Origin: Escherichia coli
GTDB taxonomy: Bacteria; Pseudomonadota; Gammaproteobacteria; Enterobacterales; Enterobacteriaceae
Assembly (NCBI RefSeq): GCF_044324875.1
Contig: NZ_CP172185.1
Length of the DNA stretch: 64,000 nt
Direction: 5' to 3' (one strand)
Both the position numbers and the translations under genes were made by a program. Below the pieces are notes generated by a model. The model was not told the DNA's origin and did not search any database. It was given only the letters and a program-made list of their open reading frames with translations. This document shows positions 48,803 through 61,470 of this stretch, piece after piece. The number at the start of each line of letters is the position of its first letter. The stretch's first letter is position 1.

Positions 48803-49438
48803 TTATAGAGATAATTTGTTGTGAACCTGCTTGCGTAACCGGTTGAAAAGGGAAAGCAACTTCTTATACCGTAAGGCTAAAAGCAGTACCGCCAGCCCAG
48901 CGTAGATGAGTGGCTGCGGTGAAATAATCTTCACTGACCACAGATAATGTATTGGGGCCAGGATCGCGACAAGATAGACGAAATTATGCAACTGTTGCCA
49001 GTGCTTGCCGAGTTTTCGCTGCATCGCCTGGGTTGAAGTAAACGCTAAAGCAAGCAAAATAACCCAGCTGATAATTCCTAACGTTAAATAAGGCCGGGTA
49101 ATTAACTCCTTACCTAATAACGCCAGATTATTCACGCCCAGCTCCAGTAATGCGTAACTGGTTAAATGCAGTGTCGCCCAGGCAAAGCACCATAAGCCTA
49201 ACAGGCGGCGAGTGCGTATCAATAACGGCTGTTTTGCGTAGCGTGCCAGAGGTGTGATTAACAAGGTCGCCAGCAAAAATTTCAGTGCAGTGCGACCAGT
49301 AAAATGCTGAATATCTTTCACTGGATCGGCACCCAGTCCACCGTGATTGATCGCCCAGACCAGCCAGAGAAACGGCAACAATCCGGCAAGATGCAGGCAA
49401 ACTTTCATCCATGTCACCTGTTTTGCTGTCAGACGCAT
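48803..49438 (-). CDS. msrQ: Methionine sulfoxide reductase haem-binding subunit MsrQ (YedZ)
   Basis: 211 aa polytopic membrane protein immediately downstream of msrP. Confidence 0.9.
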
Positions 49439-50449
<1,011 letters not shown>

Positions 50450-50551
50450 TCACACTTTTTTGTCGTTAGCCAGCAAGAGCCGTTTACTGTTAATCTGTCA
50501 GGGAGTGTCCTCCCTAACAGTAGCAGAGATCTGCTTTTACATATTTATGCA

Positions 50552-50965
50552 TTAACTGCCACGATAGGTTGAATACCCATATTGGCTAAGTAATAAAGGC
50601 ACATGATAATGCTCGTTCACTTTATTAATATGAAATTCAACGGGGATCTCAGGGAAGAAACTTTCAAGATTTTGTTTCTTGAAATAGTCCCCGGTTTTAA
50701 ATACGACACGGTAATCGCCCGTAGTTGCAGTTTGCTCGGGCCACAGTGCCTTAATTCGTCCATCCTTATCTGTTTTGGCGGTATTAAGTTGTAACCAGCC
50801 GTTGTCCGCTTTCTTTTCAAGAGTGACTGTCACGTCGGCAGCGGGTTTTCCTGTTTGCTGGTTCAAAATGTGCACGCTAAGAATGTTTTGTTGTGCAGCA
50901 TAGACCAAAGAAGGTAATGAAAATGCAGCCGTTACTACGGAGAGTACTAAATAACGCTTTAACAT
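50552..50965 (-). CDS. hiuH: 5-hydroxyisourate hydrolase (transthyretin-like) HiuH
   Basis: 137 aa with signal peptide and C-terminal YRGS motif. Confidence 0.85.
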
Positions 50966-51097
50966 GTTTATATCCTTGTCATGTGAATGAGTTTTGAGGA
51001 TAGCGAAAAAGCGTCCAGGGTAACCTTACAGCAGCATTACAATTTTGTAATGAACCAGGCTGTTTCTATAACATATGATTTATGGCATATTATTTTC

Positions 51098-51769
51098 ATG
51101 AAGATTTTACTTATTGAAGATAATCAAAGGACCCAGGAGTGGGTAACGCAGGGGCTTTCCGAAGCGGGTTATGTCATTGATGCCGTTTCTGATGGCAGAG
51201 ATGGGCTTTATCTTGCGCTGAAGGATGATTATGCATTGATCATTCTGGATATTATGCTTCCGGGTATGGATGGCTGGCAGATCTTACAAACGTTAAGAAC
51301 AGCAAAGCAAACCCCTGTTATTTGCCTTACTGCAAGGGATTCTGTCGATGACAGAGTCAGAGGGCTGGACAGTGGAGCAAATGATTATCTGGTAAAACCT
51401 TTTTCATTTTCTGAGTTGCTGGCAAGGGTTCGGGCACAATTAAGGCAACATCATGCTTTGAATTCAACATTAGAAATCAGTGGCTTAAGAATGGACTCTG
51501 TTAGTCAAAGTGTGAGCAGGGACAATATCAGTATTACACTGACGCGCAAGGAGTTTCAGTTACTTTGGCTACTGGCCTCCAGAGCTGGCGAAATTATACC
51601 CAGAACGGTTATTGCGAGTGAAATTTGGGGAATCAACTTTGATAGTGATACCAATACGGTGGACGTCGCCATTCGCAGGCTCCGCGCAAAAGTTGATGAT
51701 CCTTTTCCTGAAAAGCTAATCGCCACAATCCGGGGGATGGGCTATTCATTCGTAGCGGTAAAAAAATAA
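51098..51769 (+). CDS. hprR: Two-component response regulator HprR (YedW), OmpR family
   Basis: Internal ATG at 51098 (MKILLIEDNQRTQEW) of track ORF 50987..51769; receiver plus winged-helix domains. Confidence 0.85.
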   Translation: MKILLIEDNQRTQEWVTQGLSEAGYVIDAVSDGRDGLYLALKDDYALIILDIMLPGMDGWQILQTLRTAKQTPVICLTARDSVDDRVRGLDSGANDYLVKPFSFSELLARVRAQLRQHHALNSTLEISGLRMDSVSQSVSRDNISITLTRKEFQLLWLLASRAGEIIPRTVIASEIWGINFDSDTNTVDVAIRRLRAKVDDPFPEKLIATIRGMGYSFVAVKK

Positions 51770-53127
51770 TGAAAAGATTATCTATAACCGTCCGTTTAAC
51801 CTTGCTTTTTATATTGGTGCTGTCTGTTGCTGGCGCTGGAATTGTCTGGACTCTCTATAATGGCCTGGCAAGTGAGTTGAAATGGCGCGATGATACAACA
51901 CTCATTAACCGGACAGCGCAGATCAAGCAGTTGTTAATTGATGGGGTAAATCCAGATACGTTACCTGTGTACTTTAACCGGATGATGGATGTTAGTCAGG
52001 ATATCTTGATCATTCATGGTGATAGCATCAACAAAATTGTTAACCGGACGAATGTCAGTGATGACATGTTAAATAACATACCTGCTACTGAGACAATCAG
52101 CGCAGCTGGCATTTACAGAAGCATTATTAATGATACAGAGATAGATGCTTTACGAATTAATATTGATGAAGTTTCGCCATCATTAACGGTTACTGTGGCT
52201 AAATTGGCTTCAGCCAGACATAACATGCTTGAACAGTATAAAATTAATAGCATTATAATTTGCATTGTCGCCATTATACTTTGTTCAGTATTAAGTCCGC
52301 TGTTAATCAGAACGGGGTTACGAGAGATCAAAAAGTTGAGTGGTGTAACGGAAGCGCTGAATTATAACGATAACCGGGAGCCTGTTGAGGTTAGCGCATT
52401 ACCGAGAGAACTAAAACCTCTTGGGCAGGCGTTGAATAAAATGCACCAAGCCTTAGTCAAAGATTTTGAACGCCTAAGTCAATTTGCTGACGATCTCGCT
52501 CATGAACTTAGAACGCCAATTAATGCATTACTGGGTCAGAATCAGGTTACGCTCAGTCAAACCAGAAGTATCGCTGAATATCAAAAAACAATTGCCGGAA
52601 ACATTGAAGAGCTGGAAAATATTTCGCGGTTAACAGAGAACATACTGTTTCTTGCCAGGGCAGATAAAAATAATGTTTTGGTGAAACTGGACTCGCTTTC
52701 TCTCAATAAGGAAGTCGAAAATTTGTTGGACTATCTTGAATACCTTTCAGACGAGAAAGAGATTTGCTTTAAGGTCGAGTGCAATCAGCAAATCTTTGCG
52801 GATAAAATTTTACTACAACGAATGTTATCGAATCTTATTGTTAACGCTATTCGATATTCGCCAGAAAAATCGCGCATTCTTATAACCAGTTTTCTTGATA
52901 CCAACGGCTCTCTTAATATTGATATCGCCAGCCCTGGTACGAAAATTAATGAGCATGAAAAACTCTTCCGTAGATTTTGGCGCGGAGATAATTCGCGTCA
53001 TTCCGTAGGTCAGGGACTTGGTCTTTCTTTAGTCAAAGCGATTGCCGAATTGCATGGGGGAAGTGCTACGTATCACTATCTCAATAAGCTTAATGTGTTC
53101 CGGATTACGTTACCGCAAAGAAATTAA
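51769..53127 (+). CDS. hprS: Sensor histidine kinase HprS (YedV)
   Basis: 452 aa with two TM segments, H-box (LAHELRTPINAL) and ATPase motifs. Confidence 0.9.
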   Translation: MKRLSITVRLTLLFILVLSVAGAGIVWTLYNGLASELKWRDDTTLINRTAQIKQLLIDGVNPDTLPVYFNRMMDVSQDILIIHGDSINKIVNRTNVSDDMLNNIPATETISAAGIYRSIINDTEIDALRINIDEVSPSLTVTVAKLASARHNMLEQYKINSIIICIVAIILCSVLSPLLIRTGLREIKKLSGVTEALNYNDNREPVEVSALPRELKPLGQALNKMHQALVKDFERLSQFADDLAHELRTPINALLGQNQVTLSQTRSIAEYQKTIAGNIEELENISRLTENILFLARADKNNVLVKLDSLSLNKEVENLLDYLEYLSDEKEICFKVECNQQIFADKILLQRMLSNLIVNAIRYSPEKSRILITSFLDTNGSLNIDIASPGTKINEHEKLFRRFWRGDNSRHSVGQGLGLSLVKAIAELHGGSATYHYLNKLNVFRITLPQRN

Positions 53128-53233
53128 CATAGGGCTTCAGTACGCCATAAATTAACCGTGAAAAACGCAGCCACGTCGTGAGTATTAACGTGGCTGCGAT
53201 TGATTATGCGCTTACATTACAATGTAACAGGGA

Positions 53234-54085
53234 TTAACTCGAGTAAGCGGCCAGCATTTCCTGCGCCGCCAGTTTACCCAACGCATTCGCTGCGAAAGGA
53301 CTGTCGCCGGTGAGAACTTTACGGTCCTTATGTACTCGCCCGGTGATGTCGTCATTAATAATGTTCATGCCCATTTTCTTCAGCTCTTCGCCGAAGTACC
53401 AGGTGAGATGACCCGGCATATAGCCTATCTCTGGCGTTTGTTTGTCTGCGGCGTCTGGGAATGCGCAAATGGAATAACCATTCAGTGGGTTATCGCCGTG
53501 GCGAAGTGCCAGAAAAGCCGCCGGACCGTGGCAAAGGGATATAACAAAACGGTCATTTTTGATTGCCCACTGTAAAGCGGCAGCCACGTCCTGGCTTTCT
53601 GGTAAACCAATAAGTGCGCCATGACCACCAGGAACAAAGATTGCTGCATATTCGCTGTCAGCGTTGAGGCTGGCGACAACATCCGCGAGTTTATTCGGAT
53701 TGCGGAACAACGATTTATGCTGCTCAAAGAATGGCATTACTTTTTCATCTTTGTGTGGCATAGCCCAGTATTCAAACTTGGTCATCAGACCGGAAATGGT
53801 CGCCACTTCGAATTCGAAACCTGCAGCATGGAGATGATACAACGGCAGCAACGTTTCAATCGGATGGTTACCGGTCGAAAACAGTTTGCCGTTATCGGTC
53901 GGCAAATAACGTTCGTCCGCGGCGATCACCAGAATTTTATGTTTACCACGATAAGGTTTTGGGTAGTCCACGCCATCAAGATCAGAGACAGGACTAGTAT
54001 ATTGGCTAAGCGAATATTCTGAAGGGAAGAATGCATTATCTTCAGCAATATCGACCTGCGGATTTTTACTTGTTTGAACAGTCAT
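53234..54085 (-). CDS. hchA: Hsp31 chaperone / glyoxalase III HchA
   Basis: 283 aa; MTVQTSKNPQVDIAEDNAFFPSEYSLSQYTSPVSDLDGVDYPKPYRGKHKILVIAADERYL recognised as HchA. Confidence 0.9.
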   Translation of the reverse strand: MTVQTSKNPQVDIAEDNAFFPSEYSLSQYTSPVSDLDGVDYPKPYRGKHKILVIAADERYLPTDNGKLFSTGNHPIETLLPLYHLHAAGFEFEVATISGLMTKFEYWAMPHKDEKVMPFFEQHKSLFRNPNKLADVVASLNADSEYAAIFVPGGHGALIGLPESQDVAAALQWAIKNDRFVISLCHGPAAFLALRHGDNPLNGYSICAFPDAADKQTPEIGYMPGHLTWYFGEELKKMGMNIINDDITGRVHKDRKVLTGDSPFAANALGKLAAQEMLAAYSS

Positions 54086-54676
54086 AGTGTATTCCTTATT
54101 GTTGCTTAGTTAGGGTAGTCACTATATTTGCGACTGAGCTGGTCGCTATTTTTAACCAGGCTGGAAAATTGAGTCAATATATCGAAAGCGGTAGTCGGCG
54201 GGTGTAAGTATGTAATGATGATGCTGCACTGGTGTTGAATATTATTCACGCCAAATTTTCCTTATTGAGCAACGTCGTCGCAAGTGGCCTCAATGATTTT
54301 AGACCATTATCAGAGGTCCGGGGCGGCAGGGAGAGATTTAGTGCTGTGGAATATTGTGGTGCTGATGAATATTTATATCCCGGATTGGTAGAGAAAAAGC
54401 TTTTTCCATGCACTTTTTTTGCAAATATTTCTGTATGGGAGGCGGTTTTGTTGCAGATTAATTCATAAAGAAATGCATTTGGGTGTTGGCTGGAAGAGTC
54501 GCGGGTAGATGTTATTGTGCCAGCAGGGGCAGGGTAAGGTACTGTATCGATATGCTTTGGCAATTGCATGTGCCGCAGAGGGAGATGAAATGCCAATAAA
54601 AAAGCCTGAGTTCGATGAGGGACGAACTCAGGCTAGTGTTAACTTTTACAGTAACACGCCGCGGCGCGTTGGCTGA

Positions 54677-55870
54677 TTAGAACTGGTAGACTAAGCCCAC
54701 AGCAACGATATCATCGGTAGCGATGCCGTTTGCTTTGTAGAAGTCGTCGTCGTTGTCCAGCAGGTTGATTTTGTAATCAACGTAGGTGGACATGTTTTTG
54801 TTGAAGTAGTAAGTCGCACCAATATCAACGTATTTAACCAGATCTTTATTGGTGTAACGTGGGTCGCCGTTGCCGTCATGAGCCCAACCACCTAAATCCT
54901 TACCTTTAGATTGCAGGTAAGCGATGGACGGGCGTAGGCCGAAGTCGAACTGATACTGAGCAACAACTTCAAAGTTTTGGGTTTTGTTCGCAATACCACC
55001 TCTGTCAATGTCGTTATTGTCTTTTCCGCTGCCATATGCAGTCATATTACGTGTTTCTGCATACATTGCCGCTAAATAGACATTATTCGCATCATATTTA
55101 GCACCGACTGTCCATGCTTCAGCTGTTTCACCACCAGCATATTTATTCGAGCGTTGCTCACCTAAACCAGTAGCACGTTGGTTATCAGTACGGTCAGAGT
55201 TTGAATATGCAGCCCCGAGGCTTAACCCGAAGTCAAAGTCATAGGAAGTGGACATACCGAAACCGTCACCATTTTCTTTAGACAGTTTACGATTATTACC
55301 ATTACCAGAACCTTCTTGATCCCAAAGCCCACCCGATCCTTCATTATTACCCTGATATTGCAGAGCAAAGTTCAGGCCATCGACCTGACCAAAGAAGCCA
55401 TTGTTACGGTAGGTTGCAACACCATTAGCACGACCGTTCAGGAAGTTGTCGGCACCAGCATAGGTATCGCCACCAAATTCTGGCAGCATATCGGTCCATG
55501 CTTCGATGTCATATACGACACCGTAGTTACGACCATAGTCGAAAGTACCATTCTGACCAAAGCCTAAACCTGCAAATGCCAGACGCGTTGCGGTATTACC
55601 TTTGTCGCTTTCAGGACCGTTTGCGCCAATGTTAAATTCCCACTGACCATAACCAGTGAATTGGTCAGCGATCTGAGTTTCACCTTTGAAACCGATACGG
55701 GCATATGACATGTCGCCATCGCTGCCAGCATCATCAGAGAAGTAGTGCAGGCCCGCTACTTTTCCGTACAAATCCAGTTTATTACCATCTTTATTATAGA
55801 CTTCAGCCGCATTTGCTGCGCCAGCAACTAATAACGCCGGGACCAGCATTGCCAGAACTTTTCTTTTCAT
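54677..55870 (-). CDS. yedS: OmpC-family outer membrane porin YedS, apparently intact
   Basis: Internal start [37 protein letters not shown] (signal peptide) of track ORF 54677..55900; C-terminal porin motif ending F. Confidence 0.8.
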
Positions 55871-56498
55871 TATGTATTCCCTTGTGATTATAATCTTCAT
55901 GAATATATCAATAAGTGCCGTTATCCAAAAAAAAGCACATTTGGATACTATTCTATGAAGTTCATTTTATTTTAAAGATTACATGTAACAAATATATTTA
56001 AAAGATTTCAAAATGTTTCTAATCTATTTAATATAATTCAGAATTATGAATTCTAAATATAAATATTCATGAAAATTATAAATGTATATCAATATGTTAT
56101 GAGTTGAGCGGAAACATAGGGGGTATCAATGATTGTTGCGCCAAACGGCTGGTGTGATCACGCGCACATTAATGAAGGCATAAAAAAAGCCGGCATCATG
56201 CCGGCCCAAAAAAAATAAACAAGACGATAAAAGGCTAATAACGGAAGCATCATGACACAGAATAATAAAAAGGTATAATTGTAATCAGTGCTAATATATT
56301 GATTGAATGAATTAATAAAGCCGATATCAAAGATAAATAAAATCGCTCAAAACGATTTTTCCTGTATTCACTGCCGTTGCGCAAAAATTATCTATTTGTT
56401 CAAAAAATGATTGAGTCTTGACTGGCTCATCCAATGTGGAAAAATGTGACTTTTATCACATAATAGTACTAAGTCTGAATTTTCCGGGTTATCTCAAA

Positions 56499-56801
56499 AT
56501 GGAATACGGTTCGACAAAGATGGAAGAGAGACTCTCTCGCAGCCCTGGCGGCAAATTGGCTTTGTGGGCTTTCTATACATGGTGTGGCTATTTCGTCTGG
56601 GCAATGGCGCGTTACATCTGGGTGATGAGCCGGATCCCTGATGCCCCGGTGTCGGGATTTGAAAGCGATTTAGGCTCTACCGCGGGAAAGTGGTTAGGGG
56701 CACTGGTTGGCTTTTTATTTATGGCTCTGGTCGGGGCATTGTTAGGCAGCATTGCCTGGTACACCCGACCTCGTCCCGCACGTAGCAGACGCTATGAATA
56801 A
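56499..56801 (+). CDS. yedR: Inner membrane protein YedR
   Basis: Internal ATG (MEYGSTKMEERL...) of track ORF 56418..56801; two hydrophobic segments. Start is uncertain. Confidence 0.6.
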   Translation: MEYGSTKMEERLSRSPGGKLALWAFYTWCGYFVWAMARYIWVMSRIPDAPVSGFESDLGSTAGKWLGALVGFLFMALVGALLGSIAWYTRPRPARSRRYE

Positions 56802-56840
56802 AAACTGCTAAGGTTGCGATTCTTTGGCAACGGAGCGCGT

Positions 56841-57535
56841 ATGGACTTACAACACTGGCAGGCACAGTTCGAAAACTGGTTGAAAAACCATCATCAGCAC
56901 CAGGACGCGGCCCATGACGTATGTCATTTTCGCCGCGTCTGGGCTACGGCACAGAAGCTGGCGGCAGATGACGATGTCGATTGCTGGTGATTTTAACCGC
57001 CTGTTATTTTCACGATATTGTGAGCCTGGCGAAAAATCATCCGCAACGGCAGCGTTCTTCAATCCTGGCGGCAGAAGAGACGCGTCGCCTGCTCCGTGAA
57101 GAGTTCGTGCAATTTCCGGCGGAGAAAATTGAGGCCGTTTGTCATGCCATTGCCGCGCACAGTTTCAGCGCGCAAATCGCCCCCTTAACAACGGAAGCTA
57201 AAATCGTCCAGGATGCGGATCGGCTGGAAGCCCTGGGGGCGATTGGCCTGGCGCGCGTGTTTGCCGTTTCAGGGGCATTGGGCGTGGCGCTGTTTGATGG
57301 TGAAGATCCGTTCGCACAGCATCGCCCGCTTGATGATAAACGCTACGCGCTGGATCATTTCCAGACTAAGTTGCTGAAGCTACCGCAAACCATGCAAACC
57401 GCAAGAGGCAAGCAGCTGGCGCAGCACAACGCGCAATTTTTAGTCGAGTTTATGGCGAAGCTCAGTGCCGAACTGGCGGGGGAGAATGAAGGTGTCGATC
57501 ACAAGGTGATAGATGCGTTTTCACCCGCGGGCTGA
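56841..57535 (+). pseudogene. yedJ: HD-domain phosphohydrolase YedJ with apparent frameshift near 56980
   Basis: ATG at 56841 encodes the HD motif ([47 protein letters not shown]) then hits TGA at 56988. The rest of the HD domain continues in the +2 frame (track ORF 56981..57535). Frames overlap by 1 nt, consistent with a single-base deletion or sequencing error. Confidence 0.65.
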
Positions 57536-57601
57536 GCGCGTGGCCCTAAATGGCTGTAATTATGTTAACCTGTCGGCCATCTCAGATGGCCGGTTAAATC
57601 T

Positions 57602-59020
57602 ATGCAGGAAAATATATCAGTAACCGATTCATACAGCACCGGGAATGCCGCACAGGCAATGCTGGAGAAACTGCTGCAAATTTATGATGTTAAAACGCTG
57701 GTGGCGCAGCTTAATGGTGTGGGTGAGAATCACTGGAGCGCGGCAATTTTAAAACGTGCACTGGCGAATGACTCGGCATGGCACCGTTTAAGTGAGAAAG
57801 AGTTCGCCCATCTGCAAACGTTGTTACCCAAACCACCGGCACATCATCCGCATTATGCGTTTCGCTTTATCGATCTATTCGCCGGAATTGGCGGCATTCG
57901 TCGCGGTTTTGAATCGATTGGCGGACAGTGCGTCTTTACCAGCGAATGGAACAAACATGCGGTTCGCACTTATAAAGCCAACCATTATTGCGATCCGGCG
58001 ACGCATCATTTTAATGAAGATATCCGCGACATCACCCTCAGCCATAAAGAAGGCGTGAGTGATGAGGCGGCGGCGGAACATATTCGTCAACACATTCCTG
58101 AACACGATGTATTACTGGCGGGTTTTCCTTGTCAGCCATTTTCGCTGGCTGGCGTATCGAAAAAGAACTCGCTCGGGCGGGCGCACGGTTTTGCCTGCGA
58201 TACCCAGGGCACGCTGTTCTTTGATGTGGTGCGCATTATCGACGCGCGTCGTCCGGCGATGTTTGTGCTCGAAAACGTCAAAAACCTGAAAAGTCACGAT
58301 AAAGGAAAAACGTTCCGCATCATCATGCAGACGCTGGAGGAACTGGGCTATGACGTGGCTGATGCAGAAGATAACGGGCCGGACGATCCGAAAATCATCG
58401 ATGGTAAACATTTCCTGCCGCAGCACCGTGAACGCATCGTGCTGGTGGGGTTTCGTCGCGATCTGAATCTGAAAGCCGATTTTACTCTGCGTGATATCAG
58501 CAAATGTTTCCCTGCACAGCGAGTGACGCTGGCGCAGCTGCTGGACCCGATGGTCGAGGCGAAATATATCCTGACGCCGGTGCTGTGGAAGTACCTCTAT
58601 CGTTATGCGAAAAAACATCAGGCACGCGGTAACGGCTTCGGTTATGGAATGGTTTATCCGAACAATCCGCAAAGCGTCACGCGTACGCTGTCTGCTCGTT
58701 ATTACAAAGATGGCGCGGAAATTTTAATCGATCGCGGTTGGGATATGGCCACGGGTGAGAAAGACTTTGACGATCCGCTGAATCAGCAACATCGTCCACG
58801 TCGGTTAACGCCTCGGGAATGCGCGCGCTTAATGGGTTTTGAAGCGCCGGGAGAAGCGAAATTCCGCATTCCGGTTTCGGACACTCAGGCCTATCGCCAG
58901 TTCGGTAACTCGGTGGTCGTACCGGTCTTTGCCGCGGTGGCAAAACTGCTTGAGCCAAAAATCAAACAGGCGGTGGCGTTGCGTCAGCAAGAGGCACAAC
59001 ATGGCCGACGTTCACGATAA
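57602..59020 (+). CDS. dcm: DNA-cytosine methyltransferase Dcm
   Basis: 472 aa with C5-MTase motifs FAGIGG and [11 protein letters not shown]. Confidence 0.9.
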
Positions 59021-59471
59021 GGCCACTCGCAGCAAAAATATGCGCGCGATTGCCACGCGTGATACGGCGATTGAGAAGCGCCTCGCCAGTCTGTTAACCG
59101 GGCTGGGCCTGGCGTTTCGCGTTCAGGACGCCAGTCTGCCCGGACGCCCGGATTTTGTCGTTGATGAATATCGCTGCGTGATATTTACCCACGGCTGCTT
59201 CTGGCACCATCATCACTGCTATTTGTTTAAAGTGCCTGCGACTCGAACCGAGTTCTGGCTGGAGAAGATAGGTAAAAATGTTGAACGCGATCGCCGCGAT
59301 ATCAGTCGCTTGCAGGAACTCGGCTGGCGCGTATTGATTGTCTGGGAGTGTGCGTTACGTGGGCGCGAGAAGCTGACGGATGAAGCGCTTAGCGAGCGTC
59401 TGGAAGAGTGGATCTGCGGCGAAGGTGCCAGCGCGCAGATCGACACGCAGGGGATTCATTTACTCGCTTGA
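59001..59471 (+). CDS. vsr: Very-short-patch repair endonuclease Vsr
   Basis: ATG at 59001 overlapping the dcm 3' end; [32 protein letters not shown]...[12 protein letters not shown]. Confidence 0.9.
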
Positions 59472-60380
59472 TGCGTCCTGAATAACGGGCGCAACTACGG
59501 GTTTTGCCGGGAAGAGATATTTTCCCAACGTGACCAGTAACACCGCGAAGACAATCACGCCGAGCGCCAGCCATTCAATCTTCGACAGCGTCTCTCCGCC
59601 CAGTCCCGTACCCAGCAAGACCGCGACCACCGGGTTAACGTAGGCGTAGCTGGTGGCGAGAGCCGGACTGACGTTGCGGATTAAATACATATAAGCGTTA
59701 ATGGCGATAATTGAACCAAACAGCGCCAGATAGCCGACCGCAAGGAAGCCTGAAAGGGAAGGGAGCGCCGTCAGTTTTTCACCCGCAATCATCGACGCGA
59801 TCATTAACACCACGCCTGCTGCCAGCATCTCAATCGCACCCGCCATCATCCCTACAGGTAAGGTAATGCGCGAGCCATAAACCGAGCCAAACGCCCAGCT
59901 AATCGAGCCGATTAAAATCAGAATCGCGCCCCACGGATTGCCGCTTAAATTTCCACCGCTATAGAGCATGATGATTCCGGCAAGCCCAATGGCGATACCC
60001 ACCCATTCCAGTTTGCGCGTTTTAATGCCAAACAGGCGGCTGAAGCACAGGGTAAAGAGGGGCACGGTTGCAACCACTACGGCGGCGATGCCGGAAGGAA
60101 CATTTTGATGTTCGGCAACCGTCACCATGCCATTACCGACAGCCAGCAATAACAGGCCAATCAGCGCGGCATTGAGCAGCGGACGTAGCGGGGGGAGTTT
60201 GTGTCCGCGCAGTAGCAAAAATGCCAGCAATAAAATACCGGCTGCCAGGAATCGAACGCCCGCCATCATTAACGGCGGCCAGCTTTCCACGCCAATCCGA
60301 ATGACAAAATAGGTTGAGCCCCAAATGATATACAACGCAAACAACGCGCCAAAAAGCGGTAACAACTGGCGGAAACGCAT
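59460..60380 (-). CDS. yedA: EamA/DMT-family transporter YedA
   Basis: 306 aa polytopic membrane protein with the duplicated EamA pattern. Confidence 0.85.
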   Translation of the reverse strand: MRFRQLLPLFGALFALYIIWGSTYFVIRIGVESWPPLMMAGVRFLAAGILLLAFLLLRGHKLPPLRPLLNAALIGLLLLAVGNGMVTVAEHQNVPSGIAAVVVATVPLFTLCFSRLFGIKTRKLEWVGIAIGLAGIIMLYSGGNLSGNPWGAILILIGSISWAFGSVYGSRITLPVGMMAGAIEMLAAGVVLMIASMIAGEKLTALPSLSGFLAVGYLALFGSIIAINAYMYLIRNVSPALATSYAYVNPVVAVLLGTGLGGETLSKIEWLALGVIVFAVLLVTLGKYLFPAKPVVAPVIQDASSE

Positions 60381-60552
60381 AATCCCTCACGGTGGAAATA
60401 AAAAGGTGGTTCATAGTAAACGTGAAAATCATTCTGCTGGCGAGAGATATAATTGCACTTGATTGTTAAAAAAATGTTGACCTGTGAAGCAAGTATCAGA
60501 GCTACCGTTTTTGCTTCATACTTACACCCTTCAACAATAAAAATGAGAGGGA

Positions 60553-61470
60553 ATGCTTTTGGCCGGGAGTAGTTTACTGACGTTGCTCGATGATATCGCC
60601 ACACTGCTGGACGATATCTCCGTGATGGGCAAACTGGCGGCGAAGAAAACCGCCGGTGTATTAGGGGATGACTTATCGCTCAATGCGCAACAAGTTTCAG
60701 GCGTGCGGGCCAACCGGGAACTTCCCGTGGTCTGGGGCGTGGCGAAAGGATCGCTGATCAATAAAGTGATTCTGGTGCCGCTGGCGCTGATCATCAGTGC
60801 GTTTATCCCGTGGGCGATTACGCCACTGTTGATGATTGGCGGCGCGTTTCTCTGCTTTGAAGGGGTAGAGAAAGTGCTGCATATGCTGGAGGCGCGTAAA
60901 CATAAAGAAGATCCGGCGCAGAGTCAGCAGCGTCTGGAGAAGCTGGCGGCGCAGGATCCGCTGAAGTTTGAAAAAGACAAAATAAAAGGGGCGATTCGTA
61001 CCGATTTTATATTGTCTGCGGAAATCGTCGCCATCACGCTGGGGATTGTGGCAGAAGCGCCGTTGCTTAATCAGGTGCTGGTGCTTTCAGGCATCGCGCT
61101 GGTAGTGACCGTGGGCGTCTATGGTCTGGTAGGGGTTATCGTTAAGATTGATGACCTGGGGTATTGGCTGGCGGAAAAATCCAGCGCGCTGATGCAGGCA
61201 TTAGGTAAAGGGTTATTGATCATTGCGCCCTGGTTGATGAAGGCGTTATCGATTGTCGGCACGCTGGCGATGTTCCTCGTCGGCGGCGGGATTGTGGTAC
61301 ATGGTATTGCGCCGCTGCATCACGCCATTGAACATTTCGCCGGGCAGCAAAGTGCAGTGGTGGCGATGATATTACCGACTGTTTTAAATCTGATTCTTGG
61401 TTTTATCATCGGCGGCATCGTGGTGCTGGGAGTGAAAGCCGTAGCGAAAATGCGCGGTCAGGCACATTAA
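60553..61470 (+). CDS. yedI: DUF808 inner membrane protein YedI
   Basis: 305 aa membrane protein; start is an alternative codon per track. Confidence 0.8.

Follow-up and report, generated by a model that had tools for sequence, protein, structure and literature searches.

The yedS locus of Escherichia coli raises the question of whether the porin gene that the present strain carries there is a complete gene, when the K-12 copy is a disrupted pseudogene, and whether the strain may in consequence possess an additional porin. The window, that is, the whole stretch of DNA that was analysed, comprises 64,000 nucleotides. A sequence-only reading of this stretch had recognized yedS as a continuous OmpC-family ORF whose product has a signal peptide and ends in Phe, had named the gene a disrupted pseudogene in K-12 and had implied that an intact copy is something unusual.

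The yedS reading frame

Both the raw sequence and the list of ORFs in all six frames contain an uninterrupted ORF of 397 aa on the minus strand, exactly at the coordinates first proposed (54677..55870), the strand having been left unstated. The sequence-only reading had allowed for an overlooked internal stop; we looked for one, and there is none in 54677..55870. The ORF starts with the ATG at 55870, the same start that RefSeq gives for the identical gene, and the following features define its coding region:

54677..55870, minus strand: yedS CDS, 397 codons plus stop, intact; product identical to WP_000824405.1
55878..55883, minus strand: Shine-Dalgarno-like AAGGGA, with a 7-nt spacer to the ATG at 55870, read from the sequence
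55898..55900, minus strand: alternative in-frame upstream ATG, which would give 407 aa; no Shine-Dalgarno
55808..55870, minus strand: signal peptide, codons 1-21, with cleavage between ANA and AE, by reading and by alignment to OmpC/OmpF

The upstream ATG at 55898..55900 is probably not the yedS start, and a 407-aa product beginning at 55900 was rejected, as this codon has no ribosome-binding site, the N-terminus that would result is not signal-peptide-like and the RefSeq start gives 397 aa. Older GenBank records do contain a 'putative outer membrane protein YedS' of 405-407 aa that begins at the upstream ATG, against the 397 aa of RefSeq, and this differing choice of start has the effect that one yedS gene is split among different database protein clusters.

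Alignment with OmpC and OmpF, together with inspection of the sequence, confirmed both the signal peptide and the terminal Phe, the protein ending in ...GLVYQF. In the alignment, the N-terminus of mature YedS (AEVYNK...) is the same as that of K-12 OmpC, and the 21-residue signal peptide is identical in all of the yedS-locus alleles compared (14/14).

Genomic context

The gene order in MG1655 is drpB, rseX, yedS (b4496), hchA, hprS and hprR. By blastn, positions 49000-61000 of the window and K-12 2029000-2040000 form a single colinear block with 97% identity, and the identification of the gene as yedS is upheld by the synteny drpB–rseX–yedS–hchA, as in K-12, which is made up by the following neighbours:

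56520..56801, plus strand: drpB (yedR), upstream synteny anchor; coordinates transferred from the CFSAN018748 RefSeq annotation
56182..56271, minus strand: rseX, coding for a small RNA (Rfam RF01401, 95.1 bits), ~310 nt upstream of yedS and in the same orientation
56207..56187, minus strand: terminator belonging to rseX itself
53234..54085, minus strand: hchA (glyoxalase III / Hsp31), downstream synteny anchor

Between the yedS terminator and hchA lies an ORF of 116 aa with a TTG start (54246-54596, minus strand), annotated in CFSAN018748 as 'hypothetical protein' (WP_107235853.1). Since different small hypothetical ORFs, on the opposite strand, are annotated in the yedS-hchA spacer of other genomes, the 116-aa ORF is probably an over-call. 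On a larger scale, the genomes that best matched a query of positions 40000-64000 cover it only from ~42950 onward and to at most ~80%, and among the features lying under these matches are an IS66-family (ISCro1) transposase, a phage terminase, yeeJ and a YadA-like protein. Partial coverage and mobile features together indicate that the neighbourhood has mobile or variable insertions, which differ between otherwise close strains.

Comparison with the K-12 copy

That yedS is a disrupted pseudogene in K-12, as the sequence-only reading had stated, proved correct, since annotation and alignment both show lesions. In NC_000913.3, yedS (b4496, 2034051..2035243) is annotated as a pseudogene, and in the gene alignment it carries a CAG to TAG (amber) change at nt 484, in codon 162, and lacks 1 bp at about nt 666; PGAP flags the yedS of a K-12 derivative as 'frameshifted; internal stop'. 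Alignment with K-12 yedS had been proposed as a check on the reading, and K-12 does not have the same intact ORF.

The two copies differ by more than these lesions. They are also separated by two in-frame 3-nt indels, and their global alignment (1194 vs 1193 nt) has 121 differing columns, which are concentrated in nt 530-900, the ends being nearly identical. The divergence thus falls in one segment:

54955..55351, minus strand: hyperdivergent central segment, 70-81% nucleotide identity to K-12; corresponds to extracellular loops L4-L6

The rest of yedS and both flanks are 95-100% identical to K-12 at the nucleotide level. Because the central ~400 nt (loops L4-L6) are just 70-81% identical, the window gene is, as judged from the alignment, a different allele and not simply 'K-12 repaired'.

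Occurrence of intact yedS in E. coli

The implied rarity of an intact yedS was not borne out, as the gene is intact in 16 of 23 sampled genomes, with ORFs of 352-404 aa, and the exact protein is present in RefSeq. The sample was taken at even spacing along a ranking of genomes, each row standing for ~136 genomes, and comprises 23 complete E. coli genomes in which the locus is present; it is not a census, and two of the 23 states were inferred from feature names or scores. The remaining seven genomes (7/23) have a broken yedS:

K-12 lineage (n=2): a K-12 derivative flagged by PGAP, and J53 (inferred from an identical score)
Frameshift (n=2): two genomes of ~5.4-5.6 Mb
IS3 insertion (n=1): SCU-105, the closest match over the gene plus flanks
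IS5/ISKpn26 insertion (n=1): 160-11H1, from feature names
IS2 insertion (n=1): CX12

The K-12 pseudogene is therefore a minority condition, and E. coli usually has an intact yedS. In CX12, an internal stop is present in the adjacent drpB as well. In the last ~10% of the ranking only true ompC or ompF was matched, and there the yedS locus is either missing or too divergent for megablast.

The particular allele of the window is also widespread. Its product is 100% identical to WP_000824405.1, encoded by an intact CDS in CFSAN018748, and the gene differs from that of WP_000824405.1 by one synonymous nucleotide (A/G at ORF nt 936). We considered whether this single-base difference from all database copies could be disruptive, and rejected this on account of its being synonymous. 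At 99.9% identity, the same allele occurs in about 55 complete genomes of E. coli, which come, among other sources, from swine (ETEC), poultry, wastewater and humans (ESBL), and an exact-sequence look-up found the exact protein on at least 1000 contigs. The intact yedS, its protein sequence and the pseudogene status of the K-12 copy were all already known.

Porin family, fold and pore

YedS matches the Porin_1 family (PF00267) with 476.9 bits (gathering score 23.7), the match extending over residues 27-397 and over profile positions 1-337 of 337, and it reaches 546.8 bits, vs a cutoff of 484, with NF007841, the NCBIfam model of the 'porin OmpC' subfamily. The description of the protein as OmpC-family holds at the family level, but its closest paralogue is OmpN/OmpK37 and not OmpC: identity to the K-12 paralogues is 68% for OmpN, 62% for OmpC and 56% for OmpF, and the closest solved structure is that of Klebsiella OmpK37 (6v78; E = 6.8e-147, 493 bits), ahead of OmpK36, OmpC (2j1n) and OmpF.

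An AlphaFold2 model, obtained with an 11-sequence alignment (pLDDT 60, pTM 0.62), was used for the layout of loops and strands only. Strands alternate with loops in this model, as expected for a porin barrel, and the top Foldseek matches are OmpK37, OmpK36 and OmpC (TM 0.68-0.80, probability 1.00), with TM 0.72/0.80 and 64% identity for OmpK37 6v78. YedS is predicted to be a 16-stranded beta-barrel, a prediction in which homology carries the weight, the confidence of the model being moderate. The model segments of low confidence (85-98, 128-150, 179-197, 235-246, 282-290 and 330-336) coincide with loops L2-L7, and the YedS loops, too, are assigned mainly by homology.

The residues expected to line the pore could be located in loop 3 and opposite to it:

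55450..55512, minus strand: loop 3 constriction segment, codons 120-140, with PEFGGD and with the counterparts of the acidic OmpF residues D113 and E117

The basic residues K16, R42, R82 and R132 (OmpF numbering) are also conserved in YedS and, in the alignment, all ten pore positions checked are identical among YedS, OmpC, OmpN and OmpF (10/10).

Allelic variation at the locus

The locus shows much more polymorphism than would be guessed from K-12 alone. The 14 alleles that share the signal peptide have conserved flanks as well, and their mature porins fall into deep classes. The class to which the window allele belongs (387-404 aa) is OmpN/OmpK37-like; the other classes (357/371 aa and 352 aa), at only 59-61% identity to the product of the window allele, have OmpK35, PhoE and OmpF as their best structural relatives. 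Within the class of the window allele, variable positions amount to 45 of 190 in strands vs 85 of 207 outside strands.

The deep allele classes, together with the repeated independent inactivations, would fit a hypervariable porin cassette on which phages, colicins or host antibody have long exerted a balancing or diversifying selection, and which is expressed in the host and not in the laboratory; the unusual thing would then be the locus and not this one gene. We offer this reading tentatively, as one that has a real but less than even chance of being right. The hypervariable cassette is a property of the species, not of the window strain.

Regulatory sequences and expression

We identified, on both sides of the gene, sequences that may take part in its transcription:

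54603..54634, minus strand: intrinsic-terminator-like hairpin with a 12-bp stem and 7 GC pairs, then the T-run TTTTTATT
56057..56030 and 55991..55964, minus strand: two sigma-70-like promoter candidates, each with 9/12 matches, by consensus only
55900..56350: AT-rich upstream region, 28-33% GC
56151..56171, plus strand: CRP-type palindrome GGTGTGATCACGCGCACATTA, TGTGA-N6-GCACA, directly downstream of the rseX 3' end

Counted from the last base of the yedS stop codon, the 5' base of the terminator hairpin follows 43 nt downstream. Both promoter candidates lie upstream of yedS, in the AT-rich leader that begins after the rseX terminator, and they are weak, the scan having returned 9 sites vs 5.8 +/- 2.1 expected from shuffles, which is barely above expectation. 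The palindrome is the counterpart, with one spacer mismatch, of a site at K-12 2033766 (apparently CRP) that a Footprint-seq preprint lists against yedS (PMC12871828). We regard it as a putative element, which, at its distance from the gene, may or may not bear on yedS transcription.

Pairing of MicF, MicC and RseX with the yedS leader (-120..+30) was predicted to be no better than with shuffles (z = +0.8, -0.5 and +0.4, respectively), in a procedure with mononucleotide shuffles in which MicF and MicC were represented by their first 40 nt only and the positive controls gave z = -4.9 (MicF-ompF) and z = -5.3 (MicC-ompC). With the prediction at shuffle level while the controls worked, we claim no site for sRNA control in this leader. 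MicF control of yedS was reportedly described by Warner and co-workers in 2013.

DNA with a GC content of 28-33% is of the AT-rich kind bound by H-NS. The adjacent rseX is repressed by H-NS/StpA (PMC8313858) and, by analogy, this repression and the AT-richness suggest that the upstream region of yedS may be silenced by H-NS as well. Several relatives of YedS have a similar reputation. OmpN and OmpK37 are called quiescent, poorly expressed porins; Salmonella OmpS1, for its part, is quiescent in the laboratory, repressed by H-NS/StpA and de-repressed by LeuO (PMC4264507). The AT-rich upstream region (28-33% GC), the quiescence of these relatives (OmpS1, OmpN and OmpK37) and the H-NS-repressed rseX together suggest a low, conditional expression of yedS, such that YedS would be functional but made weakly or conditionally, and poorly under standard conditions.

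A few published observations bear on expression. A paper on the sigma-E regulon lists 'yedS (ompS1)', and in its array study the K-12 yedS transcript changed 2.5-fold (PMC2731931), which indicates that the locus is transcribed at some level. In the passages that cite the work, a clinical isolate is described in which an active yedS is tied to susceptibility to carbapenems (Warner et al. 2013, AAC 57:1935, via PMC4048246, PMC11267920 and PMC8537846), the wording on this isolate in the citing passage of PMC4048246 being 'yedS porin gene is active'. Serum antibodies to a recombinant YedS, which may derive from another allele, were found in 1 of 141 healthy people (PMC11242715). As to the window strain, its sequence is compatible with the proposal that it may express an additional porin.

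Proposed function and alternative explanations

We consider it very probable that the window carries an intact yedS allele, an accessory porin gene at its normal locus, which codes for a general diffusion porin of the OmpC/OmpN/OmpK37 branch and is expressed weakly or conditionally. If YedS behaves as the other members of its family do, the precursor would be exported by Sec and cleaved after ANA, leaving a mature protein of 376 residues, and BAM would recognise the C-terminal ...YQF and insert the protein into the membrane. YedS would then form trimers and act as a classical general diffusion porin, in which the pore would be narrowed by loop 3 (PEFGGD, D106 and E110) facing the basic cluster K16, R37, R75 and R126 (mature numbering) and would let small hydrophilic solutes, beta-lactams among them, diffuse through it passively. 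As a 'quiescent' porin, YedS would be of importance chiefly in cells that have lost OmpC/OmpF or in which the silencing is lifted, and its long variable surface loops may reflect selection by phages, colicins or antibody.

Of the other explanations, the one that survives best is that YedS is made constitutively, as an additional abundant porin beside OmpC and OmpF. An intact ORF with a ribosome-binding site, a terminator and candidate promoters would be expected in that case; the intact state has been kept in 16/23 genomes, which suggests use at least sometimes, and yedS is described as active in the clinical isolate of Warner 2013, in the passage of PMC4048246 that cites it. Nevertheless, the upstream region is of 28-33% GC, typical of H-NS-bound DNA, the adjacent rseX is silenced by H-NS/StpA (PMC8313858) and, in laboratory culture, OmpS1 is quiescent (PMC4264507). 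Within the 7/23 broken copies, the gene has been inactivated independently by IS2, IS3, IS5 and frameshift, which indicates that loss is readily tolerated, and anti-YedS serum antibodies were present in just 1/141 healthy people (PMC11242715). Constitutive, abundant production is, in view of these observations, unlikely.

It is more improbable still, to the point that we give it little weight, that the ORF is intact but the gene dead, a relic that has not yet decayed and has no usable promoter under any condition. The weakness of the promoter matches and the repeated loss or breakage of the gene (7/23 sampled, and ~10% of the ranking with no detectable locus) would agree with such a relic. Against it, strand positions vary much less than loops in the allele class of the window (45/190 vs 85/207), every pore residue is kept among alleles with only ~60% identity, and even the deeply diverged allele classes have retained intact ORFs (352-404 aa); the conserved strands and pore residues and the intact diverged ORFs point to purifying selection on the fold, and a gene that is never expressed would hardly be subject to it. 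The 2.5-fold change of the K-12 yedS transcript (PMC2731931) also speaks against it.

Finally, that the gene is ompC itself, as the RefSeq/PGAP symbol 'ompC: porin OmpC' would have it in dozens of genomes and as the score above the NF007841 cutoff (546.8 vs 484) might suggest, can be dismissed practically with certainty, because NF007841 models a subfamily and is passed by K-12 OmpN as well (593.8, with 751.7 for true OmpC), the context is drpB-rseX-[gene]-hchA and not ftp(apbE)-ompC-micF-rcsD, the protein is 62% identical to OmpC vs 68% to OmpN, and in the same genomes the median number of matching places is 3, with the real ompC among them. Orthology of yedS with ompC (b2215) was rejected on these grounds of synteny, score and identity. 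The label itself arises from the subfamily model, which YedS and OmpN pass alike. Genomes annotated in this way carry two genes named ompC.

Implications

For the window strain itself the finding matters little, as most E. coli have an intact copy. It has two practical sides. K-12 is a poor reference for the porin repertoire of E. coli. In strains with an intact yedS, a spare general porin could partly replace OmpC/OmpF and so affect the entry of beta-lactams and carbapenems, which has been reported for one clinical isolate. The RefSeq name 'ompC' for yedS has the practical consequence that a resistance study which screens automatically for a lost or mutated ompC can pick the wrong gene.

Comparison with known systems

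The records under WP_000824405.1 (CFSAN018748, swine ETEC and ESBL isolates) have the same flanking genes as the window and show no substantive difference from it. The K-12 yedS (b4496; formerly b1964-b1966) shares with the window copy its locus, orientation, signal peptide and C-terminus, and is ~97-100% identical to it over the first ~480 nt and the last ~300 nt; in contrast to K-12, the window copy has neither the amber at codon 162 nor the 1-bp deletion at ~nt 666.

OmpC (b2215) and OmpF (b0929) have in common with YedS the Pfam family, the 16-strand barrel predicted for YedS, the residues of trimeric porins, the style of signal peptide and the N-terminus of the mature protein. They differ in sequence (62% and 56% identity, respectively) and in locus, and a pairing of the MicC/MicF type is not predicted in the yedS leader.

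Salmonella OmpS1 has been equated with yedS by the names that others have used only (PMC2731931; NCBI homologue record 'outer membrane protein S1'). OmpS1 is activated by LeuO and OmpR, and to propose such control for E. coli yedS would be an extrapolation; its upstream region is AT-rich, similarly to that of yedS, and a similar regulation may be expected for yedS.

OmpK37 and E. coli OmpN have the same PEFGGD loop 3 and the same charged constriction residues as YedS. The ompN gene (b1377), however, is located elsewhere, at 1.436 Mb in K-12, where it adjoins micC and uspF, and the window YedS is ~20 residues longer than OmpK37/OmpN, with longer loops L4-L7. The yedS gene is best regarded as a relative of the OmpN/OmpK37 group rather than as an orthologue of its members.
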